Shown piece after piece: positions 35,878-52,378 of a stretch of 64,000 bases of DNA. Origin of the DNA: Promethearchaeota archaeon (GTDB lineage Archaea; Asgardarchaeota; Lokiarchaeia; Sigyniarchaeales; SOKP01); NCBI GenBank assembly GCA_048940925.1, contig JBHLOC010000027.1, forward strand, positions 8,884 to 72,883, written 5' to 3'. The notes under the pieces are model-generated. The model was not told where the DNA came from, did no database searches, and worked only from the letters and a program-made list of their open reading frames with translations. Position 1 is the stretch's first letter. The number at the start of each line of letters is the position of its first letter. The translations under genes and the position numbers were made by a program.

Positions 35878-37263
35878 CTATTTGCTATTTTTGATAAATT
35901 TAATCATTTCCTCTGAAATTTGATAGTTGGAAAGTACTAAATCTGCATATCCTTTCTCAGCAGCGAATTTAGGCATAGCATAAAGAATACTCGTTTGTTC
36001 AGATTCTGCGATTGTTTTTCCACCAACCTTTTTAATAGCATGTAATCCCTCAACGCCATCAGATCCCATTCCTGTTAGTAAAATTCCCAAACATCGATTC
36101 TTATAGAGTTTTGCTGCCGAAAAAAACAGGACATCAATAGAAGGCATACAAAAATTAACAGGTGAACCTTTTTTTAATTTAATACAAGGTGTTTTCTTTT
36201 CAACTGAAACTTCCATATGCTTTTCTCCTGGAGCAATGTAACCTATTCCTGATTTAAGTATTTCTCCATGATTAGATACCTTAATCTTTAATTTACATTC
36301 TAAATCTAAATTTTCAGCGAAAGCATCTGTAAAATGAGAAGATAAGTGTTGCACTACTAAGATTGGAGCTGAAAAATCACTAGGAATATCTTTAAGAATA
36401 GTTGTAATTGTTCTAGGACCACCCACACTGGCACCGATAACGATTATATTTGATATTAAGTTAACATTATTGTCGGAGGTAAATTCAGCAAAATTAGTTG
36501 ATGTTAATTTGTGATCAGGAATTAAAGAGGTTGTTTTTAATGAACCTATATTCTCTAAAGTTGAGATTTTTTCAATATTATTTGGTATCGAGATAAGTTC
36601 TTGAGCTTTTTTTCGATTTAAGTTCGATTTCCATTTTGAAATAGCATCTAATTTTGGTAAATTACCTTTTTTAGATTTTTCATTGAAAAATTCCTTTGGT
36701 TTTGCTTTAAAAGTAAAATTATATTCATTTATCTTGTCAACTTCCTCAATAGGTTTTAATCGATTAAGATATTGACCAAAGTCAAAGATTTCATTAACAA
36801 TTTCTTGTCTAATAGTAGTTTTTTTAGTTAAAGACTTTTTCTCTTTCCTAAAAATTCTTTTTATCTGTGATTGTGAAGCTAACAGAACCTTAGCAAGTAG
36901 CTCTTTTCGAAATCGTGGTAAATCTTTTGCTCCAATGCCTCCTGGTTTAATAATATAATCAAATGCTCCCATTAACAATGCTTGAACAGAAGAATCCAAG
37001 TTTTTTGGACTTATTGCTGAAAGTATAATTGTAGGCGTTGGATGGTCTTTCATAATAATTTTAAAAGCATCTAACCCATTCATCTTGGGCATAACTAAAT
37101 CCAAAACTAAGACATCTGGTCTGTGTATTCTAATTAAATTAATAGTTTCTTTCCCATCTTTAGCAAAATCTACATTATTAATGAATTCATTTTTCTTGAG
37201 AATATCTGAGATACTCTTTCTTAAAAAAGCTGAATCATCGGCCACAAGAACATCAATATTCAA
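35878..37263 (-). CDS. cheB: Chemotaxis methylesterase CheB with long linker
   Basis: Receiver domain (ADDS, LDLVMP, KP) plus esterase triad motifs GASVGG, VQHL and TGMGSDG. Confidence 0.93.
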   Translation of the reverse strand: MNIDVLVADDSAFLRKSISDILKKNEFINNVDFAKDGKETINLIRIHRPDVLVLDLVMPKMNGLDAFKIIMKDHPTPTIILSAISPKNLDSSVQALLMGAFDYIIKPGGIGAKDLPRFRKELLAKVLLASQSQIKRIFRKEKKSLTKKTTIRQEIVNEIFDFGQYLNRLKPIEEVDKINEYNFTFKAKPKEFFNEKSKKGNLPKLDAISKWKSNLNRKKAQELISIPNNIEKISTLENIGSLKTTSLIPDHKLTSTNFAEFTSDNNVNLISNIIVIGASVGGPRTITTILKDIPSDFSAPILVVQHLSSHFTDAFAENLDLECKLKIKVSNHGEILKSGIGYIAPGEKHMEVSVEKKTPCIKLKKGSPVNFCMPSIDVLFFSAAKLYKNRCLGILLTGMGSDGVEGLHAIKKVGGKTIAESEQTSILYAMPKFAAEKGYADLVLSNYQISEEMIKFIKNSK

Positions 37264-37337
37264 TTAAGTCTCCCTTAAAACCATAATTAATTAATCCAAT
37301 AAATAGTAGTGTAATGAAATTTATATCTTTCTTAAAG

Positions 37338-38288
37338 CTAAAATAAACTTGAAATAAGAAAAGTAAATAATTCATCAATTCCCTGTCCAGTGAGGGCAGA
37401 TGTTTCAAAAAAGGGAATATTATATTGTTTTGCTAAGTTTTGAGCTTTTAATTTAAAATTTCCGCGACTTTCAGCTAGATCTATTTTATTTCCTACAAGA
37501 ACATGCGGAATAATTTTATTTCCTAAATATGATTGTGATTCTTCAAACCAATCAGGTATTTTTTTTATGGTATCTATATTTGAATAATCAAATAACAATA
37601 AAACAGCATTTGAATATTCATAGTAAAATCGTCGAATTTTGGCAAAATTCTTTAAACCACCTAAATCAAATAGGTATAATTTTAAATTGTAATCCTTTGA
37701 GATTTTTAATTTTTTCTCGAAAATTGTAATGCCAATAGTGGGGCTATAGATCTCGTTAAAAACACCCTTACAATACATCTCAGTTAACGTACTTTTACCT
37801 ACTGTTTCAGATCCTAAAATTGTGATTGTTTTTACAATACTTTCATTAAATCTTCCGTTAGTTAAGATTAATTTTCCTTTTTCATTTAATTTTGGAATTT
37901 TCATTGCTGTCTCAATATTATTTAAGATAAATGATATTTTCTGAGCAGTAATATAGACATATGGTATATATTTTTCAATATTTGAATAATGGTCTGCGAT
38001 TAAGACAAAAATAGCAGGTGTTCTTCTACCCAGTTCCATATAAAAAAGTTGAAATTCATTAGTATCAAATGTTCCACTCCCAAACGAGGTTTCTGCATAC
38101 CTCTTAATCTTACTTATAGTTTGTTCTAAAATAGCCATAATAGCTCCAATTAATTCTTCATCAAATGCTTTTGTCGATTGACGCGCTATAATTAAACCGT
38201 CTAAATCTACAACTAAAGCTGCTAACAAATCTTGAATTTCATCTAACAAATTACCTAATAAATCTTCCAAAACTGTTAATTTAGACAT
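37338..38288 (-). CDS. Roadblock/LC7 (MglB-like) domain fused to a Rab/Ras-like small GTPase
   Basis: N-terminal LAALVVDLDGLIIA roadblock pattern. G1 GSETVGKST, G2 PTIG, G3 DLGG, G4 NKID, G5 TSAL. Confidence 0.9.
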   Translation of the reverse strand: MSKLTVLEDLLGNLLDEIQDLLAALVVDLDGLIIARQSTKAFDEELIGAIMAILEQTISKIKRYAETSFGSGTFDTNEFQLFYMELGRRTPAIFVLIADHYSNIEKYIPYVYITAQKISFILNNIETAMKIPKLNEKGKLILTNGRFNESIVKTITILGSETVGKSTLTEMYCKGVFNEIYSPTIGITIFEKKLKISKDYNLKLYLFDLGGLKNFAKIRRFYYEYSNAVLLLFDYSNIDTIKKIPDWFEESQSYLGNKIIPHVLVGNKIDLAESRGNFKLKAQNLAKQYNIPFFETSALTGQGIDELFTFLISSLF

Positions 38289-38364
38289 TTTTAATATTTT
38301 TTATTTCTCTTCTGTAAATTCTTATTATTTTGATATTATCTCTTAAAATTTATACCTAAGATTA

Positions 38365-39048
38365 TTATAAATTCATACTGTATTTAATATTTAGAATTTC
38401 AAATAAATTCTTTAATAGATTCAAATTTGGTATAAGACAAATTACCCCGTTTAGTTTTATTTCTTTAACTTCCAACATTGTCTTAATTATTATAGAATAA
38501 TCAGAAATTTGAGAATATTTCGCTATAATGTAGTTTAGCATGGCATTTACATTATCAAGTGCAATCTGTGGAAAGGTGGGAATCAATTTAGTCGATAGTA
38601 AATCAGCTAAACTATTTGAATAATGACCAGCTAAAATACTTCCTATTTCTTTTATGATGCTGTGAGAAAATTCATCTAAATCGCTAAGTAGTTTTATTTT
38701 GTCAGCTGATAATTTTTCATATACCGTTAAATTATTTATTAAATTAATTATTGAATCCTTAGAGTAAACCTGAACTATTGTTAATTGAGATTCTTCATTA
38801 ATATTTGAGATTATTCCAAATACATTATTTTTTTTGTTATTAAACAACTCAGGGATTTCCCAAAATGGAATGATATTTACTGATGTTAAAGATACTTCAA
38901 CATTGTTATCTAGTAATTTTGAAAGAGCTGTAATAGCATGCCCCGAACCTATATTTCCTAGCTCTTTTAATAAATCAAGTTGCTCTGGAGTTAGTTCTAC
39001 ATCTACATAATTCTTTATATCATTTTTATTTTTTCTCATTTTTCTCAT
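38365..39048 (-). CDS. cheC: CheY-P phosphatase CheC
   Basis: DLLKELGNIGSGHAITALS and EIGSILAGHY motifs. Confidence 0.9.
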   Translation of the reverse strand: MRKMRKNKNDIKNYVDVELTPEQLDLLKELGNIGSGHAITALSKLLDNNVEVSLTSVNIIPFWEIPELFNNKKNNVFGIISNINEESQLTIVQVYSKDSIINLINNLTVYEKLSADKIKLLSDLDEFSHSIIKEIGSILAGHYSNSLADLLSTKLIPTFPQIALDNVNAMLNYIIAKYSQISDYSIIIKTMLEVKEIKLNGVICLIPNLNLLKNLFEILNIKYSMNL

Positions 39049-39064
39049 TTTTTAGAAATTTTTA

Positions 39065-39604
39065 TTAAAGTTTTTTAAACTCACTTTCTCCGCTTGATCT
39101 TACTAAAACGGAATAATTATGTGTGTTAAATATAATTACTCTTCCAGAGGAGCCACCTAAATCTTCATTTACAATTTTAATATCTGATTTTTTTAATTCT
39201 CTTTTTACGACTTCAATATTATTAGTGCCAATTATATTCTCATCTAAATCGAAAATTTTAGACCCTCCAACGATAATTGCTCTTATATTTTCAATTTTAG
39301 CTCCATGTGAAATCAGTTCATTCTTTAATAATTGTACTGACAGATCAGCATATTTATGAGGATAGTTTATTTTTTTCTTCGTATCTGCTTTTGGGAGTAA
39401 AATATGAGACATAGCACCGACTTTATTATTCTTATCATACAGGATAAGAGCAATACAAGAACCTAATCCGTAAATTGAAATTTTAATATGCACATTAGAT
39501 GATTTGTATTTACTATTGACTAGTGCATAGTGGCCTATTGGAAGGATAATTACACCATCTCTTCCAGTTTTTTCTATACGGCCAATTTGTTCTTCTTCAC
39601 TCAC
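39065..39604 (-). CDS. cheD: Chemoreceptor glutamine deamidase CheD
   Basis: GLGSCIA, SHILLP, KYAD, GGSKIF, IGTNN and EDLGGSSGR. Confidence 0.95.
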   Translation of the reverse strand: MSEEEQIGRIEKTGRDGVIILPIGHYALVNSKYKSSNVHIKISIYGLGSCIALILYDKNNKVGAMSHILLPKADTKKKINYPHKYADLSVQLLKNELISHGAKIENIRAIIVGGSKIFDLDENIIGTNNIEVVKRELKKSDIKIVNEDLGGSSGRVIIFNTHNYSVLVRSSGESEFKKL

Positions 39605-39630
39605 TTTTTAATATTCCTTTTCATAAATTA

Positions 39631-40770
39631 TTAATTATTCGTGTTTATTGTAAACTTAGAACTAAATTTCATCATATAATCTTTAATTTTATAATTGGGA
39701 CATACTATTTGGGCAGCTCCTCTTTTTATTGCCGCTTTAGGCATACCATATACTACACAAGTTTGTTCTGCTTCAGCAATAGTTTTTCCTCCTTCATTTT
39801 TGATAGATTCAAGACCTGCAGCACCATCATCCCCCAATCCAGTTAAAAGGATCCCCAAAACTTGCTTTTTACATGTTTCTGCGGCTGACAAGAATAAAAT
39901 ATCAACAGATGGCATACAGAAATTGACTGGTTCTCCTTTAAATATTTTAATATGTGGAGTATTGTTTCTCACAATTATTTTCATATGTTTTCCTCCAGGA
40001 CTAAGATACGCTTTTCCAGGAATAATTTCTTCACCATTAACTGGTATTTTTACTTCGATCTTGCAAATATTATTTAATGATTTTGCAAGTTCTTTCATGA
40101 AAAAAGAATTTAAATGTTGAACAATAAGTATTGGGCAAGGAAAGTCTTTAGGTATATCTTTTAGAATTGATTTTAGCGTTCGAGGTCCACCAGTACTAGT
40201 TCCTATTACTATAATATTAAGTTTGATTTTAGGTATTGATGGCTTACTTAAAACAGTTGATTTTGCTGAATCCAATGATACGCTAATCCTACTTGGATGA
40301 TGAGTTGATTGTATTTCTGATTGAAGATCTACTGATTTTTTTATTAAATCTGTACGCTTTTCATATGTTTTTTTAATTTTAGCCGCATATAAAATACTTG
40401 AAATTAGTTTTTTTTTAAACTTCGGAAATTCTTCTTTCCAATATCCCTGTGGTTTTAAGATAAAATCGAATGCTCCTAAAAGTAGAGCTTGAACAGAATC
40501 ATCTAACGATCGAGGATTAAGTCCTGTAAATACAATTGTCGGAACGGGGTAATGTTCCGACAGAAATTTAAGGACAGAGATCCCATCAACTTCCGGCATT
40601 ATAAGATCTAATAAAAGTACATCAGGATTATGTTTCCCAATTTTTTGAATTGCCTCTCGTCCATTTCGTGCAGTATCAACCACTTCGATATTTTGGTGAG
40701 ATGAGATCATTTCTGTTATTACTTTTCTTTGATAACTAGAATCTTCAGCAAGTATCACCTTAATTAACAT
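39631..40770 (-). CDS. cheB: Chemotaxis methylesterase CheB
   Basis: Receiver domain (AEDS, LDLIMP) plus GTSTGGP, VQHL, PSVD, TGLGDDG and VYGMPK. Confidence 0.95.
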   Translation of the reverse strand: MLIKVILAEDSSYQRKVITEMISSHQNIEVVDTARNGREAIQKIGKHNPDVLLLDLIMPEVDGISVLKFLSEHYPVPTIVFTGLNPRSLDDSVQALLLGAFDFILKPQGYWKEEFPKFKKKLISSILYAAKIKKTYEKRTDLIKKSVDLQSEIQSTHHPSRISVSLDSAKSTVLSKPSIPKIKLNIIVIGTSTGGPRTLKSILKDIPKDFPCPILIVQHLNSFFMKELAKSLNNICKIEVKIPVNGEEIIPGKAYLSPGGKHMKIIVRNNTPHIKIFKGEPVNFCMPSVDILFLSAAETCKKQVLGILLTGLGDDGAAGLESIKNEGGKTIAEAEQTCVVYGMPKAAIKRGAAQIVCPNYKIKDYMMKFSSKFTINTNN

Positions 40771-40782
40771 TAGAATTTCACC

Positions 40783-41847
40783 TTATCCTGTCTTTAGATA
40801 GATTTGATTCCGAGAATCAATTAATTTTAAAGATTTATGAGTATTAAATATAGATTCTGTTTTACCTAATATTAGCAAACCTCCAGTTGCTAACTCTTTT
40901 TCGATGATTTCTAAAAATCTAATTCGTGCTTTTCGGCTAATATAAATTAGGAGATATCTACAAAAGATAATATCATATTTTATGGATTTCTTGTGACCTT
41001 TTGTAAGATCTTCTTCTATAAATTCAACATAATTTTTAATCTTGTTACTAACTGAAAATTTATCTCGAAAATATCCGTGGATTTTAGTAAAATAATTAAG
41101 TATAAACAAATTTGAAACTTCATTTAAAGCACTTTCATTATATATACCTATATTTGCTCTATTAAGTGCATCCTTATCTATATCTGAAGCAATAATTTTA
41201 AATTGGGGTAAATAAGATATTTGTCTTTTTAAGTTATCTAAAACCATTGCTATTGAAAACGGTTCTTCACCAGATGCACAGGGACATGACCAAATATGTA
41301 TAATATTATTAGAATCTGATTGTGTCCATACTTTTCTATAAATTGATGTTTTTTTGATAAATGATAAAGCTAGCTGAGAATTTGAAAATTTTATGTGTCT
41401 ATATTTATCATCGTTTATTGATGTATTTTTATATAAAACTTCTGTTTCTATTTTGTTGTTAGTTTTTCTTTTTGAATTCGGCTCCATATCACTTATTATA
41501 GCTTTTCTATCAAGATTTAAAGTTTTTAAGAAGAAGTTTTCAAATTGTTTAAATACTTCCCAATTTCTAAAGAAACAAGAATAATTAATATTAAAACTAT
41601 CTAGAAATTTTTGAATTTCTAAGGGATTATCTTTTATATAATAATAATATGAATGAAGCGTGGAACAGTTAACACGGATCATTCGAGCTTTTATTCTACG
41701 CTTAACAAAGTTATCACGATAATATCCAAAATCCAAATTTGTTTCATGACTTAGAAAATCAAGTAAAAGATTATAATAGTCTTCATCAAATGTAATATTT
41801 TCAATCCTTATCACATGAAACACTTTATTTTTCGAGAATTTTTTCAA
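40783..41847 (-). CDS. cheR: Chemotaxis methyltransferase CheR with internal insertion
   Basis: INYSCFFRN, IWSCPCASGEEPFSIAM, ASDID, DIIFCRYLLIY and LILGKTES. Confidence 0.93.
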   Translation of the reverse strand: MKKFSKNKVFHVIRIENITFDEDYYNLLLDFLSHETNLDFGYYRDNFVKRRIKARMIRVNCSTLHSYYYYIKDNPLEIQKFLDSFNINYSCFFRNWEVFKQFENFFLKTLNLDRKAIISDMEPNSKRKTNNKIETEVLYKNTSINDDKYRHIKFSNSQLALSFIKKTSIYRKVWTQSDSNNIIHIWSCPCASGEEPFSIAMVLDNLKRQISYLPQFKIIASDIDKDALNRANIGIYNESALNEVSNLFILNYFTKIHGYFRDKFSVSNKIKNYVEFIEEDLTKGHKKSIKYDIIFCRYLLIYISRKARIRFLEIIEKELATGGLLILGKTESIFNTHKSLKLIDSRNQIYLKTG

Positions 41848-42379
41848 TTTCAGTAAAGCGTTGTTGAATATGGTCCATAGTGTATTTAATATGTTGCTGC
41901 ATTTCCTTAATTTCCGATAAAATTTTTTTTATTTGAGATTTCTGTATTTTTGCTAAAAATCTTTCTCCTACAAGAGAAGATATTTGATGAGTTTTATCTA
42001 TTGTTACACTTGGGATTTTGACTTCTGAAATTTCAGTCTGAGTTATATTATTTCTAGATTCTCCTGGATAACTCAAGTGAAATCTATTTTCTTTTATTTC
42101 TTGAAAAATAATATTAAATTCAGAGGGTTCAATTCCTTGTTTAATAACTTCATATTTAAAATTATAGAATTTTTTTTTAGTTTTTAGCTTTCCTGCCCAA
42201 TTCGCGGCCATATAACGGTGAAATAAACGTGAGTTACTACCCGACCAAATCCAGATTAATTTGAAGTCCTTATCAATAATTAAATAAACTCCATTAGGTT
42301 CAAACATCTTTTCAGGTTTCCCCTTTATTGTTTCGCCATCTACTTTAAAAATGTATTCAAAATACTCACTTTTTAACAT
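41825..42379 (-). CDS. Single gelsolin-repeat protein with C-terminal coiled coil
   Basis: FEPNGVYLIID...IWIWSGSNS...AANWA...VIKQGIEPSEF matches the gelsolin repeat consensus (L.s.dvfilD....iyvW.G..s...v.qG.Ep.eF). Confidence 0.8.
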   Translation of the reverse strand: MLKSEYFEYIFKVDGETIKGKPEKMFEPNGVYLIIDKDFKLIWIWSGSNSRLFHRYMAANWAGKLKTKKKFYNFKYEVIKQGIEPSEFNIIFQEIKENRFHLSYPGESRNNITQTEISEVKIPSVTIDKTHQISSLVGERFLAKIQKSQIKKILSEIKEMQQHIKYTMDHIQQRFTEIEKILEK

Positions 42380-42473
42380 TTTTTAAATTTTAACCTCTAT
42401 TCGATGTCTTTAATAACCTTTAGAATCTAAAAAAGTACTCATAGTAGAAAAGTTTTGAATTTCGCAAAAAAAA

Positions 42474-44432
42474 TTAAGAGTAAAATTTTAAAAGTGCATC
42501 AAGTAATTCTTGTAGGGTATTAAGATTTGGAATGAATAAGAATGTTCCTTGAACTTTAATATCAGTGATAATTACGTTTGTGGTGATTACTAGCGATAAT
42601 TTTCTAAGCAATCCAATTTCTTCTTTTAATATGCTAAATAATTGCTGTCCAGTATCAACTGACATGTCTGGAGGCTCTGTCATAAGCCGTATTCCAAGTA
42701 GATCACCTATAGCACTAACATAATGACTTCCGAGAATATGTCCTAATTCGGAAAGAGCACTTCTATAAAGTTCTGGATAATCATCAGCTTTATCAATTTT
42801 CTTCCTCAAATCGATCTTCTTTTTATCTTTATCATCAACTATTATTGATGTAATATCAATTGAATCTTTTACATTGAATATCGTAAGTACTGTAGCTCTT
42901 GTTTTCCCAATAACGTTACTCCATGCGACTAATAATTTTTCATTCTTTTTACTTATCTTTTGAGCATATTCATCTAATTCAACCATCTCTACTGATGGTA
43001 TATTTATATCAACTCTTTTATTAATCATCTGAGCTAATGCATTTGCTGCGTTTCCAGCTCCAATATTTCCAACTTCTTGTAAGGCATCTCTTTGAAGTTC
43101 CGTAAGCACTATTGAACTAACATCTAATTTATCAGCTGATTTCTCAGACTTATCTTCCATAAATGCTATTTCATGATGAATACCCAATTTATTGAAAAAA
43201 GATTTTAATGTTTCAAGGTCTGGTATAAAGAAGAAGAAACCTTGCAATTGTAATTCAGAGACTTTTATAGACGTTTTAATTATTATCATATATTCAGCTA
43301 ATGATTTTAATTCTTGAGATAGAAATTCCCCTAATTCTGCAGTATTACTCATAGCAAATTCTGGTATATCAATCATAATTTTTGTCCCTAATAAATCTGC
43401 TAAAGCAGAAGCATAATGCCCTGCCATTATGTTTCCCATTTCTGTTATTGTTGAAATAGCAAATTCATCAAGGTCCTTTTTAGACTTAACTTTATTAGGA
43501 TCTATTTTTGATTGATTTCCTGCTAACGTTGCTATTAGATTCATTAAGGGTTTCATTTCAAAAATATTGAGAATAGTAGATTGGGAAGGTTTGTCTATAT
43601 GACAAAAAATACCGCATACTCGTTCATTAGAATTCCCAAATTGCATTGATAATTTATTTAGAGATACAATTCCAACATCAGTTAAGGTCACATCTATTTT
43701 TTTCTTTATGAGTCGAGATAGTGCTGTAACTGCATTTCCAGTTCCAATATTTCCAATCTCTTGAAGTATATCTTTTTGATCATCAGTTAAGACAATTTTT
43801 TTCTCGGAAGTTGAAGTTTTCTTCTTGGTAATTTTCACTTTTTTAGGTGTAATAACAGTTGATTCTATGTCATGAATCACTTGTTTTTTAGGTATCACTT
43901 TTGGGCGTTCCAGAATCTTAGGTTTTAGAATATTTTTCTCTACTTGTATTTCGAAAGATTTAATATAGGGTTGGATTAAAGCATCTAAATCTAGCAAGAT
44001 AAGTGGTTCGTCTTGAAATATCCCTGTTAGTTTTATAAATTTAAAATCTATGTTTGTTTTTACAATCGTTCCTTGTGCTTTAAAAATTGAAATTGGAAAC
44101 TCTCTCACACCAATTACAGAATCAACTAATAAAGCAATTTTTAAATTTTCCCATTCTAAGAGTAGAATACGTGATTTTTCATCTAAAGCATATTCTATAT
44201 CATTACTATAAATATTGTGTTTAAGTGAGATAATTGAATAAATATCTCCTCTGATATTTATAATCCCTACAATTGATTTATCTGCTAACGGTACTGGAAC
44301 TATTTTTTCTCCAGGTACAAAAATCTCTTTAACCTTTTCAACCTCAATAAGATATTTTTCATCTTGTACCTGTATTATAACAGTTGATATATTTTCTTCA
44401 AATTCTATTTTTTCATATTCACTATTTAACAT
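42474..44432 (-). CDS. CheW-CheC-CheC fusion protein
   Basis: N-terminal CheW (VPVPLA..SIVGIINIRG, LLVDSVIGV), then two CheC domains (EIGNIGTG/EMGNIMAG and EVGNIGAG/ELGHILGS). Confidence 0.9.
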   Translation of the reverse strand: MLNSEYEKIEFEENISTVIIQVQDEKYLIEVEKVKEIFVPGEKIVPVPLADKSIVGIINIRGDIYSIISLKHNIYSNDIEYALDEKSRILLLEWENLKIALLVDSVIGVREFPISIFKAQGTIVKTNIDFKFIKLTGIFQDEPLILLDLDALIQPYIKSFEIQVEKNILKPKILERPKVIPKKQVIHDIESTVITPKKVKITKKKTSTSEKKIVLTDDQKDILQEIGNIGTGNAVTALSRLIKKKIDVTLTDVGIVSLNKLSMQFGNSNERVCGIFCHIDKPSQSTILNIFEMKPLMNLIATLAGNQSKIDPNKVKSKKDLDEFAISTITEMGNIMAGHYASALADLLGTKIMIDIPEFAMSNTAELGEFLSQELKSLAEYMIIIKTSIKVSELQLQGFFFFIPDLETLKSFFNKLGIHHEIAFMEDKSEKSADKLDVSSIVLTELQRDALQEVGNIGAGNAANALAQMINKRVDINIPSVEMVELDEYAQKISKKNEKLLVAWSNVIGKTRATVLTIFNVKDSIDITSIIVDDKDKKKIDLRKKIDKADDYPELYRSALSELGHILGSHYVSAIGDLLGIRLMTEPPDMSVDTGQQLFSILKEEIGLLRKLSLVITTNVIITDIKVQGTFLFIPNLNTLQELLDALLKFYS

Positions 44433-44468
44433 TATAATATCCTCTGTTTAACTCATTACAAAATTTTT

Positions 44469-45308
44469 TTATTTTATCATTATACCTTTCCAAATTAATT
44501 CTACATCAGTTTCATCTTCAGTTGCTCCAATAAAGAAATCTGATTGTTTAAAGATTAATATTTGTCCTCCATTTGAATACTTGTAGACATAGTTTAGTAA
44601 ATCATCCATACTTGTATAATTAAATCCTGCAAGTTTTAATTCTGAATTATCTACAATTATTAGATCTTCTTTATTAAAAACGCGATTTTCTTCTATCCAT
44701 TCAATCCATAATTCTGGAGTTATTTCAGTGTTAATTATCTTATAACTTTCATCTAATGGTATATTTCGAAAAGATTTATTAGCAGCTATTATAATCCTAT
44801 GTGGTATAGTATTCTGTTTTTTTGCGAATTCTGCCATATCTTTTAATGATTGATTAAAATTATCTAATTCGAGAGTATCATGACAAGAAATGAAAATTGT
44901 TTCATTTTCTTCAGTTTCTAGTATAAAATCAAAAAATTTAGCAGAATTGTTATTTTGGTTTACCTTCATAGATTTAATAGTTATACCTAAATAATATTTA
45001 ATATATTGATAAAATCGCCATTTAACAGCTAATCTATGATTTATTTCTCTACTAATAAATATCTGGAACAATGTTTTTAGGTCAATTTCATTTAATTTTG
45101 ATATATCCGCCAATTTACCTTTATCTTTGCCAATTTCGAGAAATTTATCATTGGTAGTTGATTTTGAGTTTTTAACAGGTTTCGTTTTAATTTCATCTAA
45201 GAATTTGTTTAATTCATTATAAGTGAATTGTGGCAAGATTTGATCAACCAAATATGAAACATACTTCTTCGATTTATCATCCAACGTTTCAAAAAACTGT
45301 AAATTCAT
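44469..45308 (-). CDS. Hypothetical protein, possible degenerate PD-(D/E)XK-like fold
   Basis: 279-aa soluble ORF inside the che operon. FDFILETEENETIFISC resembles a restriction-endonuclease core without the catalytic Lys. Confidence 0.55.
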   Translation of the reverse strand: MNLQFFETLDDKSKKYVSYLVDQILPQFTYNELNKFLDEIKTKPVKNSKSTTNDKFLEIGKDKGKLADISKLNEIDLKTLFQIFISREINHRLAVKWRFYQYIKYYLGITIKSMKVNQNNNSAKFFDFILETEENETIFISCHDTLELDNFNQSLKDMAEFAKKQNTIPHRIIIAANKSFRNIPLDESYKIINTEITPELWIEWIEENRVFNKEDLIIVDNSELKLAGFNYTSMDDLLNYVYKYSNGGQILIFKQSDFFIGATEDETDVELIWKGIMIK

Positions 45309-45363
45309 TCTATTTCCTCCTATAATTTTTCTTTTTTCGATTTAATTATAATTTTGTTCTGAA

Positions 45364-47379
45364 TTATCCAATAAAAAAGGATTCTAACTCTGAATATTTT
45401 ACATCTTTTCCGGTAATATTTTTTAGATAATACATTACTTCCTTTTCTTGAAAGGGTAATAAAGTTTCAATTGTGAAGAATATTTTACGTTCTCCAGATT
45501 TATCTGCTTTGCTTAACTTATGATCGATATTTGAAGAGACAAGTTCAAATGAGTCTGGGAAAGAATCAGTTAAATCAACATTATTAAGTTTAATATTTGA
45601 ACCATTTCTTGCAGTAATATAAATTGCAAATTCATTGCTAGTCCTCCCTGGAAATATTTCCTTTCCAATCATTAGCTTACGACGTTTATGAGTAATTTTT
45701 AGTTTAGAGGCATCTTTCATATCTAAATTGGTGGTAATTATATAATACTCATTAGATTTTACATCTAAATATTTAGGATAATATGTCTGAACATCCAATG
45801 GAAATTTATAATCTTTATTGGGATCAGGAGTAATAGCGTTAAGTGAATATCGGACCTCTAAAAAGTCATCAACATTTATCAATGATTTACTATTATAATT
45901 CTTCAAATTAACTCTTAGTTCTAAAAGATGTTCACTAGATGGATCAATATCATCTGGATTAACATTTATTATAAAGTCTTCAAATTTTACTTCTCCTGAA
46001 GAATTAAATAATTTGTATTTTGAAATCTCTTTTGAAGGCAAAAAATCTTCCGGTATTCTCTCTTGGACAATTATTCCTTTTACCGGAACTGCACCCATGT
46101 TCTTTATTACAATTTTTACATCAATTTCAGATTGCTCATATGATTTTACCTCTTTCTCTGAAAGTTCCTTTTTTATTAAAACACTTACGGTTCTAAAGAG
46201 AGTATCATCAAAATGAGCAGTAATCAAACAGTTTTTTTCAACCTTATAATCTACAGAATATTCTACTTTCCTTGAAAATGAAGGCTCTTTTTCATCTACA
46301 TAATCAAATTTTTGTGTTATATAATTTTCTTGGGGATGAATTATCAATTTTTCACCAGAACCATTAAAATTCAAGCTTAATAGAGTATTTTTCTTATTCT
46401 TATCTAAAATTAAAATTGATTTCATTATCATCTTAAAATCACTATGATTTTCAAAATAGAGAGAGCAATCCCAATGATTAGGAGAGTGATCTTTCTCCAT
46501 TTTTTTTATTGCATGCAATGCATGAGAATATGCTGAAAAGCGTTCAATTTCTACTTCAGATAAAGTTTGATTCTTCAAATTAAATGATAATTCAATTTTC
46601 CCTGTTCTTATATTCTCTCTCTTTTTTGGAAAAATCTTGCTTATTATTGATATTTCTCTTTTTTCTCCAGGATTCAAATTATTAATAGAACATTCAACTG
46701 TGTTGCTTGTAATAATAAAATCCTTATTATCATTACCCTCAAATTCTAAATCATAAAGATATTTAGAAATATACTTTTTTAGGGTTATGTTTTCTAAAAA
46801 TGACGTTGAAACATTTTCTACAAAAATTGAGAACTTAATCTTATTTTCTTTACCAAGTAAAAGAATTTGATGTTTTTGATTTCCATCATTAATAAAGAGA
46901 GATCCATCTGGGCTATCTCCAAATGATTTAATATCCTCATTTAAGTTCTCAATATTTTCCTCTATTTTTATTAAATCAGGGAGCATTTCTGAATTTACCA
47001 TTTCATATTTCAAAATTTTATTTGAATTTGGTTCAAAGATACCTAAGTTTACATCTTTTTCTGAGTTTTTATCATCAAATTGTGTGCCTGAAAATTGTAA
47101 AAATGCATCCCAAATTCTATCTTTAAGTGAATTATTATAAATTATTATGTTACCATATCCAGTTATAGAAGATCTCTTCTTATCATATTGATATTTATAT
47201 TCTAAAAATTCTTCATTAGCAATCAATATTTCTGAGATTGAGCTTATTACATTTTTTCCTATTTTTAAATCTCTTTTACTAGTTTCTATTACTTTTCCTG
47301 TTTCCCTTATTGGCATACCAAGGAAATTGACTCCAATTTCAGTTTTTAACTCATCTTGGTTAACTTTTTTAAAACCCAT
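45364..47379 (-). CDS. Cytosolic multi-beta-sandwich protein (Ig-like/DUF11- or mu-homology-like domains)
   Basis: No signal peptide or TM. Repeated patterns such as IVIKNMG..VKGIIVQERIPEDF and ITARNGS...VDLTDSFPDSF. Confidence 0.6.
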   Translation of the reverse strand: MGFKKVNQDELKTEIGVNFLGMPIRETGKVIETSKRDLKIGKNVISSISEILIANEEFLEYKYQYDKKRSSITGYGNIIIYNNSLKDRIWDAFLQFSGTQFDDKNSEKDVNLGIFEPNSNKILKYEMVNSEMLPDLIKIEENIENLNEDIKSFGDSPDGSLFINDGNQKHQILLLGKENKIKFSIFVENVSTSFLENITLKKYISKYLYDLEFEGNDNKDFIITSNTVECSINNLNPGEKREISIISKIFPKKRENIRTGKIELSFNLKNQTLSEVEIERFSAYSHALHAIKKMEKDHSPNHWDCSLYFENHSDFKMIMKSILILDKNKKNTLLSLNFNGSGEKLIIHPQENYITQKFDYVDEKEPSFSRKVEYSVDYKVEKNCLITAHFDDTLFRTVSVLIKKELSEKEVKSYEQSEIDVKIVIKNMGAVPVKGIIVQERIPEDFLPSKEISKYKLFNSSGEVKFEDFIINVNPDDIDPSSEHLLELRVNLKNYNSKSLINVDDFLEVRYSLNAITPDPNKDYKFPLDVQTYYPKYLDVKSNEYYIITTNLDMKDASKLKITHKRRKLMIGKEIFPGRTSNEFAIYITARNGSNIKLNNVDLTDSFPDSFELVSSNIDHKLSKADKSGERKIFFTIETLLPFQEKEVMYYLKNITGKDVKYSELESFFIG

Positions 47380-47448
47380 TTCAATTTTCCTCCAAATTTT
47401 ATTTAAACAGCAAATTTTTTCTTATTTTTAAAAAATATTTAATTAACT

Positions 47449-49485
47449 TTATTGTGAAATTTCACCTTCTAGTAATTGTTTTGATATGATATTGAGCACA
47501 TCAAGGATCAAACAAATTTCACCAGAACCAGTGATAGCAGATCCTAAAATATTTCGAGAATCTGAATAGCTTGATTTAAATGGTTTAACTACTAAGTCTA
47601 GTTGTTGAAGTTGTTTATCTGCTACTAAAACTGCCGAATTCTCATTATCTTTTTGACACCATACAGCAACTTTCTTATATGAATTAGTTTCATTTATATC
47701 AACCATTTGTAAGTGTTGATCCAAATGAATAAGAGGGAGTAATTTTGAATTAATTTTGTAATATTGTATCCCTTCATTGTATTCGACTAAATTTGGATTG
47801 AAAAAGTATATTTGCTTGATATTTTCAATGGGTATAGCAAATAAATCTTCTGAAATTTGAAGTAATTGAGCTCTCAAAATAGCCCTTGTAAATGGAACAA
47901 TCAATGTAAATTTAGTCCCAACGTCTTTTTGTGAGGTGATGAGTAAATCTCCTCCTAATTCTTTTATTTTTTCAGCAACAATAGCTAATCCTATCCCTCT
48001 ACCTGATATAATATCAGCATCTGAGAGAGTCGAAAAACCAGACATTAGTATATATTTATTCAATTCATCCGGTGTTAGCTCTTCGATTTGATTAGCGTCA
48101 AAATATCTCTTATTACGGATTTTTTGTTTTATTTTATCATAATTTATACCTGCACCATCATCTTCTATCTCTATGTGAATAGAACCTGCTTTCCTATATG
48201 TTTTTATTCTTAAAATTCCAAGTTCATTTTTACCTTTCCTTTTCCTTTCTTCTGGTGTTTCTATCCCATGGTAAATAGCATTTCTAATAAGATGAACTAA
48301 CGGGGAATTTAATTCCTCTAATATTTTTCTATCAATTTCAACATTAGTGCCTTGTAGAACTAATTTAATTTGTTTACCTGTTTCATTCGCAACATCTCGT
48401 ACAAATCGTTTATATTTTCTAAATGTAGATTCTACACGCACTAATTTTAATCTAAATAGTATTTCTTGAATGTCGAGATAGGGTTTATCCATTTTATCAA
48501 AAAGTCTACCAATAACGCGATCTTGTTTTTCTTTTAATAATTGACTAATTTGATTTTTTAATATTACCAGTTCTCCAAAATAATTCATTAATTCCTCTAA
48601 ATATTCAATATTAACTTTTACACTTGTTATTTTAGTCCCATCCTCAGAATAGTCTTCAACTATTTGAGAGACCCTCTCTACTTCTTCATCGATTAAATCT
48701 TCCTCAAAATCTTGCTCTTTATCCCATTTCTCTTTTAGATTGTTAATTGTGCTTTTAAATTCCTCAGGATTTAAAATTGTAATCACAATACTTTCAATTT
48801 CTAATATTTCATCTAAAATATGTGATATTTGTTGTTTTTGTTGGTCACTAATAAAATATATCTCGAATTCATTCTTCAAAATTGCTCTCTCTAATGATTC
48901 TGGGGCAGGAGTTGTCCAACAAATCTTACCCCTCTCATTTAATGCCCTAAAAATAATAAACAATCTTACTTTCTTAAATACACAAGTTTCCTCCAATCGA
49001 ATATAAATTTTATATGGTTTGTTTTGTCTATTACTGAGAATTTCTGTAATTTCTTCAAGAGTTATTGGTTTAATAAATGTAATATCATAACTATCTGTAT
49101 CAAAACTCTCAAAACTCCTTTTTATCTCTTCTAAAAATTTAGTGTCAATATCTTTTAAATCTCCTTTTTTGACCTTCTTTAAAACATTTTTAAGGACATC
49201 AAGACTCTCAAATAACATATCTATAAAGTCAGTTCGTTTTCCAATTGAAACTTTATTGTCTTTCGCATTTTCTAAAAAAGATTCAAAATGATGACAGAAC
49301 TTTGATAAATTTTCAAAACCCGCCATAGCAGTAAGACCTTTTAGAGTATGGAATGTGAAAAAAAGTTCCTGAATTGGTTTAGGATTTTCCGTATTTTCTT
49401 CTAATTTAAGAATTTCATCCTCAGTTTTTTGAATAAGATCCTCTGCTTCACTAATAAAAAGCTTAATATCGTCATATGAGGCCAT
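47449..49485 (-). CDS. cheA: Chemotaxis histidine kinase CheA
   Basis: HPt FHTLKG, P2 domain, ELMNYFGELV dimerisation region, HLIRNAIYHGIE, EDDGAG, GFST, SGRGIG and C-terminal CheW-like P5. Confidence 0.96.
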   Translation of the reverse strand: MASYDDIKLFISEAEDLIQKTEDEILKLEENTENPKPIQELFFTFHTLKGLTAMAGFENLSKFCHHFESFLENAKDNKVSIGKRTDFIDMLFESLDVLKNVLKKVKKGDLKDIDTKFLEEIKRSFESFDTDSYDITFIKPITLEEITEILSNRQNKPYKIYIRLEETCVFKKVRLFIIFRALNERGKICWTTPAPESLERAILKNEFEIYFISDQQKQQISHILDEILEIESIVITILNPEEFKSTINNLKEKWDKEQDFEEDLIDEEVERVSQIVEDYSEDGTKITSVKVNIEYLEELMNYFGELVILKNQISQLLKEKQDRVIGRLFDKMDKPYLDIQEILFRLKLVRVESTFRKYKRFVRDVANETGKQIKLVLQGTNVEIDRKILEELNSPLVHLIRNAIYHGIETPEERKRKGKNELGILRIKTYRKAGSIHIEIEDDGAGINYDKIKQKIRNKRYFDANQIEELTPDELNKYILMSGFSTLSDADIISGRGIGLAIVAEKIKELGGDLLITSQKDVGTKFTLIVPFTRAILRAQLLQISEDLFAIPIENIKQIYFFNPNLVEYNEGIQYYKINSKLLPLIHLDQHLQMVDINETNSYKKVAVWCQKDNENSAVLVADKQLQQLDLVVKPFKSSYSDSRNILGSAITGSGEICLILDVLNIISKQLLEGEISQ

Positions 49486-49512
49486 AAAATCACCATAATG
49501 TTTAGTTTATGA

Positions 49513-49908
49513 TTATTTCTTATCGATTTTTTTATTTTTCAGTATGCGATCCATGACCTCTAAAATTTGTTCAGTCTTGAAGGGTTTTTGAATAAAATCT
49601 TTTGCCCCTTTTTTCGCTGCTTCAAGCACTAAAGCTTCTTGTCCTAAGGCTGATACCACAACTATCAAAGCTTTAGGATTAATCTTTAGAATCTCTTCTG
49701 TCGCCTCAATACCGCCTTTTTTAGGCATAACCAAATCCATAGTAACTAAATCTGGGTTTAGTTTCTTGTATAAAGATATTGCTTCGACACCGTTTGAAGC
49801 TTCACCAATTATTTCGACCTTCTCGACTTTACTTATAATATTTTTAAGCATATTTCTTGTGAAGGCTGCATCGTCAACTATAAGGACACGTTTCTTTTCA
49901 TTTGTCAT
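49513..49908 (-). CDS. cheY: Chemotaxis response regulator CheY
   Basis: VLIVDDAAF, TMDLVMP, SALGQ and FIQKPF (Bacillus/archaeal F1-type pattern). Confidence 0.95.
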   Translation of the reverse strand: MTNEKKRVLIVDDAAFTRNMLKNIISKVEKVEIIGEASNGVEAISLYKKLNPDLVTMDLVMPKKGGIEATEEILKINPKALIVVVSALGQEALVLEAAKKGAKDFIQKPFKTEQILEVMDRILKNKKIDKK

Positions 49909-49975
49909 ATTTTCAACTCCAATTTGTTTTTGTTTAAAATTTTTTAATATTTTTTTTTATTTTTTAGATTTAATT

Positions 49976-50509
49976 TTATGTTAGAGATGACATTTCTTGT
50001 TGAATTTTAAATTTTTCAACCTCACTCAATACTTTGCTTAAATCAAGCATAATTTTGGGTCGATCTTCGAAGTTTATAATACCTTTGATATATTCCATAG
50101 CAACACTAGTCTGAAAGATAGGACTTAAATCAACAATTTCATTCGCATCAATGTGATCTATATTCATAATACGATCCACATAAAATCCGACTAAAGTATT
50201 CTCAACTTTTAGAATTATTATAAATTTCTTACTTGCACTAAATACTTCTTCTGAAGAGGATTTTTTTGCGCTATACAAAACATATTCATTCAAGTCCAAT
50301 TTCTTTTTTAAATTGACTACATGAATGATTTCTCCTCTGTAATTATAGATCCCATCTATATAATCTAAACTTTTAGGCAATTTTCGTATTTGTCCCGCTT
50401 GTATTATTTCTTTTACATCAACAAGGTCAATTACAAATTGTTCCCATCCAATTTGGAATATAATTATAGAAATTTGATTTCTATCTTTGAAATCTTTGCC
50501 TTGAATCAT
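49976..50509 (-). CDS. cheW: Chemotaxis coupling protein CheW
   Basis: VKEII, LPKSLDYIDGIYNYRGEIIHVVNL, GFYVD and YIKGI. Confidence 0.92.
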   Translation of the reverse strand: MIQGKDFKDRNQISIIIFQIGWEQFVIDLVDVKEIIQAGQIRKLPKSLDYIDGIYNYRGEIIHVVNLKKKLDLNEYVLYSAKKSSSEEVFSASKKFIIILKVENTLVGFYVDRIMNIDHIDANEIVDLSPIFQTSVAMEYIKGIINFEDRPKIMLDLSKVLSEVEKFKIQQEMSSLT

Positions 50510-50528
50510 ATTCTACATACCCTTTTTC

Positions 50529-51350
50529 TTATATTATAAAATATTGGTTAATTATTTCTTCAAAATTAGAAAATGGTGTTATATCACCATTGAAATTTTT
50601 TAAAAGATCTTTATAACTGAATAAAAATTCATCTGCTAAGAGATACATATATCTTTGAATTAAAAAATTCATTTTTTCCACTAAGAAAGCAAATATCACA
50701 TGGTTTTTAGTAATAACATAGAATTGTTGATTTCCAAAATTAATTTCTTTGAGTTTTGCCCCAGTTTCTTCCCCAATGATCGTATTCGAGAATGATAATA
50801 AGGCAGAGATAAACCCTCCGATATGTACCTCATGATCCTGTATATTTGAACGCTTTTTATTTATCATTGAAACAAATGGACTCCCTGTGGACCCAATAAT
50901 AAAAATAGCAATAACTCCCTCTGTTTTAGGTATCTCAATTGCCGAATTAAATTCATATATTATATTATTTAGTGATTCATGGGATTGAAATTTCTTGTTT
51001 ATATCTTTTGATAAGAAATATAATTGTGAGAAATTTACTGAATTTTCTTTTTTTTCCATATAAATTATAACTAATATATCATGATTAGAATGTTCAAAAT
51101 AATGAAGGAAGATTGTCATATCATTGAGAGGAATTATTGAGTTTCCTTGTTTTTTGGATATTATCTCTTTCTTATAAAGTTCCATAATATTCTGAACCAA
51201 TGGAATACCTATTCCTTTCTGAAAAAGTACTTTGAAACTTTCATTAATATTATTTTCTGAAATCCTAACCAAACCTATGCCCAAAATTTGCATTAATCTG
51301 GTGTTTTCTTTAGAATTATGAAAGTTTTCCATAATCATCATTAACTTCAT
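50529..51350 (-). CDS. Longin-domain protein
   Basis: C-terminal IFII...G.P...IGGFISALLSFS...LKEINFG...F...Y...L.NFNGDITPF..F is the typical Asgard longin pattern. Confidence 0.75.
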   Translation of the reverse strand: MKLMMIMENFHNSKENTRLMQILGIGLVRISENNINESFKVLFQKGIGIPLVQNIMELYKKEIISKKQGNSIIPLNDMTIFLHYFEHSNHDILVIIYMEKKENSVNFSQLYFLSKDINKKFQSHESLNNIIYEFNSAIEIPKTEGVIAIFIIGSTGSPFVSMINKKRSNIQDHEVHIGGFISALLSFSNTIIGEETGAKLKEINFGNQQFYVITKNHVIFAFLVEKMNFLIQRYMYLLADEFLFSYKDLLKNFNGDITPFSNFEEIINQYFII

Positions 51351-51697: not shown

Positions 51698-52378
51698 GTG
51701 GAAGAAATTTTGACTTTTCCAAATAAAATAATTTCAAATGCTGACCATAATTTTAAAGAAATTATAGTTTATTGTCCTAAATGTAAAATTAGTAAGAATT
51801 TGAATATACCCATTAAAATCATTAATCAAAGTAAACAACTAACTATAATTTCAATACCTTCAAGATTAAATTGTGAGCATAGTTTTCAAGCTTTTATTGA
51901 TAAAAACTTCAAGGTTAGAGGTTATCAATTAGTAGATTTTGAATTTTCAAAAATAGAACTCTATGAAAGCACTTCAGATATTTTGGATAGGAAAAAATAC
52001 GAAAAAAATGAAGCAACCGAATTCACATCTATGTCAATTTTTCAGGAAATTATAAAACTTCTTAGAAATTGTGTTGATGATAAGGAAGTAGTTGGTAGCG
52101 GCATATTCACCCTAGAAGGAAAAGTACTATATTCTTCATTGCCACAAACTACTTTATTTAATACAATTCGAGAATTCGAAGTAAGAAGTGAGAGAAACTT
52201 AGTTAGTGTTAAAAAAATGTATCTTGAACTTGAGAATGCTGAAAAATTTATTTCCAAATTTATGGAAATTAAGGGAGCAAAATTTAATTTAGTGTTAATG
52301 TTCTCTTTTCGCACCAAATTTGGAATGGGAAATTTACACTTGCGTGATTTATTAAGAAATATAGAAGCTTTAAATTGA
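51698..52378 (+). CDS. Zn-ribbon plus roadblock/profilin-like domain protein
   Basis: CPKC...CEHSFQAFIDKNFKVRGYQ N-terminal domain; C-terminal VVGSGIFTLEGKVLYSSLP. Confidence 0.65.
   Translation: MEEILTFPNKIISNADHNFKEIIVYCPKCKISKNLNIPIKIINQSKQLTIISIPSRLNCEHSFQAFIDKNFKVRGYQLVDFEFSKIELYESTSDILDRKKYEKNEATEFTSMSIFQEIIKLLRNCVDDKEVVGSGIFTLEGKVLYSSLPQTTLFNTIREFEVRSERNLVSVKKMYLELENAEKFISKFMEIKGAKFNLVLMFSFRTKFGMGNLHLRDLLRNIEALN

Follow-up and report, generated by a model that had tools for sequence, protein, structure and literature searches.

The window analysed here is a stretch of 64,000 nucleotides from a Lokiarchaeia-type Promethearchaeota archaeon (positions 8884-72883 of contig JBHLOC010000027.1, labelled C86; G+C about 28%), and the system in question is an operon of chemosensory (che) genes at window positions 35878-51350, in which genes for gelsolin, longin and roadblock-GTPase proteins are embedded. 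The source genome (GCA_048940925.1, labelled G000) is a metagenome-assembled genome (MAG) of 4.82 Mb in 90 contigs, with a completeness of 100 by marker genes and a contamination of 8.4%. The list of open reading frames (ORFs) contains 14 co-oriented ORFs on the minus strand, separated by intergenic gaps of 12-94 nt; an original prediction, made from the letters, had described 14 consecutive minus-strand genes with gaps under 100 nt, and its coordinates were borne out exactly. Depending on the start chosen for cheR, an overlap of up to 23 nt between the gelsolin gene and cheR is possible. According to Pfam matches and predicted folds, the operon holds a full Che set and five non-Che genes, as follows.

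50529..51350, minus strand: predicted tandem longin/roadblock-fold protein, 273 aa, first gene of the operon (AlphaFold2 (AF2) model and Foldseek)
49976..50509, minus strand: CheW (PF01584, E = 3e-25)
49513..49908, minus strand: CheY, a single REC domain (PF00072, E = 7e-26)
47449..49485, minus strand: CheA with domains P1-P5 (Pfam Hpt, P2, H-kinase_dim, HATPase_c and CheW)
45364..47379, minus strand: putative cytoplasmic DUF11 (CLIPPER) multi-beta-sandwich protein, 671 aa (DUF11, E = 8.5e-9)
44469..45308, minus strand: orphan protein, 279 aa, with a predicted PD-(D/E)xK nuclease-like core (AF2 and structure searches; no Pfam match)
42474..44432, minus strand: CheW-CheC-CheC fusion, 652 aa (CheW, E = 4e-21; CheC, E = 2e-40, in three stretches; CheX)
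41825..42379, minus strand: single gelsolin domain with a C-terminal helical tail, 184 aa (ortholog profile against the PDB)
40783..41847, minus strand: CheR (Pfam CheR_N and CheR)
39631..40770, minus strand: CheB, REC plus methylesterase (Pfam)
39065..39604, minus strand: CheD (Pfam)
38365..39048, minus strand: CheC (Pfam)
37338..38288, minus strand: roadblock-Ras fusion GTPase, 316 aa (Ras, E = 1e-33; Robl_LC7, E = 0.0023)
35878..37263, minus strand: second CheB, with a linker of about 165 aa between REC and methylesterase (Pfam)

None of the 14 operon proteins has a transmembrane-like segment or a signal peptide. Downstream, the cluster is bordered by the aEF-2 gene (33664..35856, plus strand), and upstream a 347-bp spacer separates it from the following divergent gene.

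51698..52378, plus strand: Zn-ribbon protein, 226 aa, with a predicted alpha/beta C-terminal domain (CPxC...CxH motif in the alignment; weak CpXC match)

The genetic linkage of the accessory genes to the che operon is real, as revealed by a phyletic count over a sample of 121 genomes of the source's family, related and therefore not independent, of which 38 have a CheA ortholog and 83 do not. An ortholog of the beta-sandwich gene was found in 38/38 CheA-positive and 0/83 CheA-negative genomes; the 279-aa orphan, which has no paralogs at all, in 36/38 and 0/83; the gelsolin ortholog (E < 1e-25) in 34/38 and 0/83; and the roadblock-Ras protein (about 320 aa) in 25/38 and 0/83, the latter at identities of at least 45%. 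In all four CheA-positive genomes that gave no gelsolin match, the che contig ends before the gelsolin position. A longer GTPase paralog is widespread in the family. The longin protein is one of a multi-copy family with members in 113/121 genomes, so its adjacency to cheW is the sole informative point for this gene. CheA orthologs (>50% identity) are confined to the source's own family and, with genera labelled g, they occur in 19/41 genomes of g1, 6/6 of g7, 5/7 of g5, 4/10 of g6 and 2/41 of g4, in addition to g71 and g72; this patchy presence within genera implies that the cassette genes were gained or lost together several times.

A fixed order of tandem-longin, CheW, CheY, CheA, beta-sandwich, orphan, CheW-CheC-CheC and gelsolin is found in seven genera at 40-75% identity, with the adaptation genes and the GTPase behind this block in most of them. 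The longin gene adjoins cheW in six of the seven, the exception being g72 (locus L069), whose fetched locus contains no copy. Recurring as it does across seven genera, this layout is far from a chance arrangement. Non-conservation of the inserted genes in related che clusters, which the original prediction had named as evidence against itself, was thus not found: they are kept in order and co-inherited with cheA. Three further arrangements were observed. In genome G255 (L064, C52:30000-49900) an "empty site" places aEF-2 66 bp from the longin gene, the cassette from cheW to the second cheB being absent, and this is a natural presence/absence polymorphism of a 14.6-kb cassette. In the one-contig genome G324 (L062 and L063; C1, 0.356 Mb and 1.44 Mb) the cluster lies in two parts 1.08 Mb apart, the first with CheY-CheA-beta-sandwich-orphan and only a cheW remnant, and the second with CheW-CheC-CheC-gelsolin-CheR-CheB-CheD-CheC-GTPase-CheB. 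In G316 no adaptation genes intervene, and the GTPase gene immediately follows the gelsolin gene.

A search with the narrow orphan alignment retrieved 29 loci. Beyond the family, distant homologs of the orphan (about 20-25% identity) were all found in che clusters of other Promethearchaeota MAGs. These distant clusters are laid out as methyl-accepting chemotaxis protein (MCP), CheW, CheY, (CheB), CheA, CheD, a DUF11 protein of 757-1043 aa, the orphan homolog, CheW-CheC-CheC, and CheR or CheC. The DUF11, orphan and CheW-CheC-CheC genes are always together, after cheA or cheD, and the CheW-CheC-CheC gene directly follows the orphan gene in all cluster variants. Since the distant clusters retain them, these three genes make up the deepest signature of the class. 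Around it, genes for longins and small GTPases recur as well: a Sybindin-like longin gene follows cheR in L115 and L083 (E = 1.3e-6 and 3.5e-4, respectively), and two Gtr1/RagA-type GTPases follow in L079, whose CheY is nearly identical to that of G094, a genome of a sister family within the same taxonomic order. The gelsolin gene is a family-level addition.

The signalling core (CheA with P1-P5, CheW and a canonical CheY) is complete and probably functional. In the CheY alignment Asp12, Asp13, Asp58 and Lys108 are invariant, and position 86 is Ser, with Thr in 2/9 sequences. All three CheW-domain matches of the genome fall in this cluster, which is its sole che cluster, with its sole CheA. 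The adaptation set, comprising CheR, two CheB, CheD and CheC, is of the Bacillus/archaeal style. A whole-genome check for receptors, proposed in the original prediction, found four MCPsignal proteins, all on other contigs and none in the window, and these four multi-pass membrane MCPs presumably feed the operon. They lie at L075:7305-8132, L076:6941-7735, and L077:7318-8430 and 10911-12038, and are 264-375 aa each, with 2-5 transmembrane-like segments directly before the signalling domain and without a periplasmic ligand-binding or HAMP domain. Such short receptors without a ligand-binding domain may be engaged in membrane-embedded sensing.

Two side observations concern the same core in relatives. 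In three genomes of one genus cheR is cut to about 55 N-terminal codons or is missing (L040, 11742-11900; L044; L046, 8196-8369), with cheB and cheD intact, which suggests that part of the genus is losing methylation-based adaptation. Furthermore, a second ORF of about 550-580 aa, located outside the che cluster, resembles the Hpt-P2 part of CheA alone (37-43% identity over residues 1-270); it is carried by L071 (G304:C145), L072 (G301:C39), G186:C290 and G302:C44, and G304 has no full CheA.

With regard to the eukaryote-like accessory proteins, the 184-aa gelsolin protein matches Pfam Gelsolin under the cut-off (E = 0.0087). A profile of 11 orthologs searched against the PDB retrieved 7c2f_B (E = 1.4e-6), 7whf_G (7e-5), 7c2h_G (1.5e-4), villin (4e-3) and also CapG. 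The gelsolin domain of the original prediction was therewith confirmed against solved Asgard gelsolins, and the ortholog alignment adds a conserved C-terminal helical, coiled-coil-like tail. Five genes of the actin family are present in the same genome, as are at least four further genes with a gelsolin domain. A 193-aa gene of L079 was considered as a relative and rejected, as hhalign gave no relation to the gelsolin profile.

The GTPase has a Ras-family G domain (E = 1e-33) with the motifs GSExVGKS, DLGGL, NKID and ETSA, with G1, G4 and G5 intact and without a CaaX motif. Where Ras has DxxGQ, 7/7 orthologs have DLGG(L/A/I/K) or DLSGL, so the catalytic Gln is absent. The predicted roadblock-GTPase held as a roadblock-Ras fusion, its N-terminal roadblock part being a weak Robl_LC7 match under the cut-off (E = 0.0023).

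For the 273-aa first protein no Pfam match was obtained, and all 134 of 134 database relatives are annotated as "hypothetical". An AF2 model built from 41 sequences (predicted local distance difference test score, pLDDT, 84; predicted template modelling score, pTM, 0.79) contains two domains of beta-beta-alpha-beta-beta-beta-alpha topology, spanning residues 24-122 and 146-270. Its Foldseek matches include Mon1-Ccz1, Fuzzy-Inturned, AP2 sigma and mu-N, TRAPP, LAMTOR, dynein LC7 and Asgard roadblock structures, with E-values of about 2e-4 to 2e-3 and probabilities of 0.94-1.0 for most of them. From the modelled domains and these matches it follows that the original longin label is right at fold level, for a protein modelled as a tandem longin/roadblock. 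In one relative (L038:17747-17755) an in-frame TAA occurs at codon 3 of the aligned longin start, and the real start should therefore lie a few codons downstream.

The orphan belongs to a family of 59 clusters among 1.84 billion representative proteins. Its AF2 model (pLDDT 91, pTM 0.89) was compared with known structures by VIA-align, in which every top match was a PD-(D/E)xK nuclease fold (Card1, the LlaBIII nuclease domain, NucS and R.BspD6I) at Z-scores of just 5-7.6. Foldseek agrees weakly (E = 7e-3 or weaker), as does a shape search of the Atlas (template modelling scores of 0.38-0.44), and an ESM Atlas feature search for the orphan gave sub-threshold Mrr-like leads alone. A 38-sequence alignment contains no conserved (D/E)xK on the third strand, Asp127 being the sole conserved acidic residue of the motif. 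The model thus points to a protein that is probably a non-catalytic interaction module with a nuclease-like fold. A wide orphan profile found no match in 31 CheA-positive Asgard genomes outside the family, a search that had no positive control and shows little.

The 671-aa protein is a member of a large archaeal family of DUF11 proteins of 590-970 aa. Its beta-sandwich nature, also part of the original prediction, is supported by the DUF11 match (E = 8.5e-9), which is a match of sequence. When profiles of the longin, orphan and beta-sandwich proteins were searched against PDB sequences, nothing was retrieved except the insignificant 9rhp_A (E = 0.15). Two che-independent paralogs of about 720 aa, with 22-26% identity to the 671-aa protein, occur in nearly all family genomes; in the source genome they lie at L113:7903-10077 (G000:C57) and L114:6248-8359 (G000:C14). 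Both match the adaptor mu-homology domain PF00928 just under the cut-off (E = 3.9e-7 and 8.6e-5), so that a mu-homology reading for the beta-sandwich protein can be regarded as a lead. The C57 paralog adjoins a 578-aa BBS7/BBS2-like beta-propeller gene (L113:5949-7685), and phmmer with a beta-sandwich paralog against the PDB returned nothing. The che-linked gene is longer, 970-1065 aa, in L068, L069, L070 and L051 (genera g71, g72 and g5) and in G330; these long forms carry about 1.8 kb of extra N-terminal sequence that is not alignable to the first ~170 residues of the 671-aa form. Weak coiled-coil-type matches were noted in the extra N-terminal region of the distant variants (757-1043 aa).

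The original prediction had stated that no cheF, archaellin, arl, pilus or receptor gene is present in the window, and this was borne out, with the MCP and T2SSE matches on other contigs. For the whole genome, Pfam models of CheF (PF04283), archaellin (PF01917), FlaD/E (PF04659) and the T2SSF platform (PF00482) were used, all of which gave matches in control genomes. No match to CheF, archaellin, FlaD/E or the T2SSF platform was found anywhere in the 4.8-Mb source genome (pilins were not searched for), so that the complete archaellum plus CheF that would have spoken against the original proposal did not appear. In 37 CheA-positive relatives neither CheF nor archaellin was found, and over 68 CheA-positive Asgard genomes CheF was found in none and archaellin in one, outside the source's family. 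A lone 725-aa T2SSE-like ATPase is encoded at L058:550-2727 (G000:C23), in a genome without detectable T2SSF or archaellin; a second T2SSE match was considered as a pilus ATPase and rejected, being a PIN-ATPase.

The archaeal F1-type system of Halobacterium and Haloferax consists of CheA, CheW, CheY, CheR, CheB, CheC and CheD, with the CheF adaptor leading to the ArlCDE switch of the archaellum. The present operon resembles it in its P2-containing CheA, CheW, CheR, CheB, CheC, CheD, single-domain canonical CheY and MCPs located elsewhere in the genome. It differs in that no CheF, archaellin or FlaD/E was found, in its second CheB, and in the addition of the DUF11 protein, orphan, CheW-CheC-CheC, gelsolin, roadblock-Ras and tandem-longin genes. 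What would link it to Frz-MglA/MglB of Myxococcus xanthus is a che pathway associated with a Ras-superfamily GTPase and a putative roadblock partner, in a surface-moving cell without flagellar output. However, there is no homology of layout, and no CheA-REC fusion (FrzE), dual-REC FrzZ, FrzX or cytoplasmic FrzCD: CheA carries no REC domain, CheY is the sole stand-alone REC protein, and the MCPs here are membrane proteins. Unlike in MglA/MglB, the putative roadblock domain is fused to the GTPase, which is Ras/Rab-like and lacks the catalytic Gln; the operon also has a gelsolin gene, and actin would drive the motility. The comparison with Frz-MglAB made in the original prediction stands as an analogy of function and not as homology.

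Asgard gelsolins have reportedly been described by Akil and others, in 2020 and 2022, as ProGel, 1DGel and 2DGel. The operon protein shares with them a single gelsolin-homology domain, with 7c2f_B as best solved match; it differs in its conserved C-terminal helical tail, in forming a distinct orthologous group confined to che clusters, and in that its actin binding is a prediction. The modelled tandem longin/roadblock folds are like those of Mon1-Ccz1, Fuzzy-Inturned and BLOC-3, except that two longin domains are modelled instead of the three of the Mon1-Ccz1 type and that there is no sequence similarity. With its putative N-terminal roadblock domain joined to a small GTPase, the GTPase resembles the roadblock/longin-GTPase fusions of Asgard archaea (PMC10933270). 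The same paper reports that GTPase genes of Asgard archaea do not, as a rule, share operons with genes for roadblock or longin proteins, whereas here the GTPase shares an operon with a longin gene, inside a che operon. For L. ossiferum, che genes and putative chemoreceptor arrays were reported with no named output; che genes were counted in 27/97 Asgard MAGs, again with no named output (PMC9834061). Crawling of L. ossiferum is Lokiactin-dependent and gelsolins, five of them enriched, co-precipitate with Lokiactin, chemotaxis not being mentioned (PMC13716822). No published description of a che linkage with gelsolin or GTPase genes was found in the literature searched.

A pathway from Che proteins to the cytoskeleton or to cell polarity is tentatively taken as the best explanation of the operon, although at less than even odds. 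In CheC and FliY, CheC-like domains bind phosphorylated CheY (CheY-P). In this operon the corresponding domains of the fusion, tethered to the receptor array through its CheW domain, could sense CheY-P there in concert with the beta-sandwich and orphan proteins. The signal would then reach one or both of two recipients: the gelsolin protein, with a local effect on Lokiactin, and the roadblock-Ras switch, for which the tandem-longin protein may serve as a platform of the guanine nucleotide exchange factor (GEF) or GTPase-activating protein (GAP) type. The outcome would be biased growth of protrusions or biased polarity, and hence a bias of the slow actin-based crawling described for Lokiarchaeum. 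In this specific form, in which CheY-P controls the che-specific gelsolin and/or roadblock-Ras through operon-encoded partners and steers Lokiactin-driven protrusions as a prokaryotic chemotactic crawling, the proposal is rather doubtful.

Several points weigh against a cytoskeletal or polarity output. Among the extra genes it is those of the 279-aa orphan and the DUF11 protein, and not the eukaryote-like ones, that are conserved most widely. Almost every genome also encodes paralogs of the longin and beta-sandwich proteins that are independent of che, and in G255 the longin gene and its divergent Zn-ribbon neighbour persist without the che cassette. The cluster of G228 has no GTPase gene, that of G207 has a truncated one, and the g7 clusters retrieved lack it. 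Actin binding by the 184-aa gelsolin protein is predicted from homology, and Frz-MglAB, the closest model for the working of the operon, would be a functional likeness. An action of CheY-P on actin, protrusions or polarity is a proposal drawn from domain identity, gene linkage and the published Lokiactin-dependent crawling. Moreover, Asgard che systems lack an archaellum in general and not just where this type of cluster occurs: CheF and archaellin are likewise missing alongside plain Asgard che clusters that have no accessory genes, and the absence therefore does not single out the accessory genes as the output. Of the original prediction of a rewired che pathway controlling actin-based protrusions or polarity, the part that stood is the failure to find an archaellum or CheF and the conservation of the inserted genes; the control of actin or polarity by CheY-P did not gain the same footing.

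Two other explanations stand close behind. The accessory proteins might be structural or positioning parts of an Asgard-specific array (a baseplate, a phosphatase tether, perhaps a gelsolin anchor to actin), with the output encoded elsewhere, a possibility somewhat less probable than the one preferred. It agrees with the position of the DUF11, orphan and CheW-CheC-CheC genes, which in every variant lie between cheA or cheD and the CheW fusion, with the nature of the CheW domain as an array component, and with the split in G324, where beta-sandwich and orphan stay with cheA, and gelsolin with the CheW fusion and the adaptation genes. However, such a scaffold leaves the recurring small GTPase and longin genes unexplained, extra density is seen in no array structure, and a gelsolin domain would be odd for a simple anchor. 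Many bacterial che-like systems have alternative cellular functions, and an output other than motility, such as membrane trafficking or remodelling, adhesion, or cell-cell (syntrophic) contacts, could be exerted through the longin and roadblock-GTPase proteins; this is considered less probable still. In its favour, the tandem-longin protein is similar in fold to GEF platforms of Rab and Rag GTPases, the operon contains a roadblock-Ras gene and L079 a Rag-like pair, and the beta-sandwich paralogs have near-threshold mu-homology, one of them adjoining a BBSome-like propeller gene. On the other hand, it is the gelsolin gene that is most tightly co-inherited among the eukaryote-like genes, the GTPase is dispensable in several clusters, and the operon has no genes of membrane-trafficking machinery.

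A conventional filament, either a divergent archaellum or a type IV pilus, missed by the Pfam models or left unassembled, would make the accessory genes peripheral. The 90-contig state and 8.4% contamination of the MAG, the T2SSE-like ATPase on C23 and the report of some Promethearchaeota with arlI, arlJ and cheA together (PMC13747009) are in its favour. It is nevertheless clearly unlikely, as archaellin, FlaD/E, CheF and T2SSF gave no match here though the controls matched, none was found in the 37 relatives, and no archaella have been reported for cultured Lokiarchaeum (PMC9834061, PMC13716822). That the non-Che genes are chance neighbours without a functional link might be argued from the richness of Asgard genomes in gelsolin, longin and GTPase paralogs, but the strict co-occurrence of orthologs (0/83 CheA-negative genomes) and the fixed order across seven genera at just 40-75% identity make pure coincidence highly unlikely, and the phyletic and synteny data bring it close to refuted.

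The operon yields a short list of proteins that travel with che genes alone, namely the gelsolin, roadblock-Ras, DUF11 and orphan proteins, and the accessory proteins are testable candidates for linking chemical sensing to actin-based crawling. Should the link to the cytoskeleton prove true, regulators of the eukaryotic cytoskeletal kind would have been connected with a prokaryotic sensory pathway before eukaryogenesis. Should it fail, there would still be an undescribed chemosensory class particular to Asgard archaea, defined by the DUF11, orphan and CheW-CheC-CheC genes.

As for the divergent neighbour, no significant Pfam match was obtained for any member of the longin, orphan and divergent-gene alignments, and hhalign comparisons among the longin, divergent-gene and roadblock-Ras alignments, which are shallow, gave no detectable relation. 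A roadblock reading of the Zn-ribbon protein can be regarded as a lead. In g1 and in two genomes of g7 its gene flanks the head of the cluster, and in two other g7 genomes it flanks the tail.

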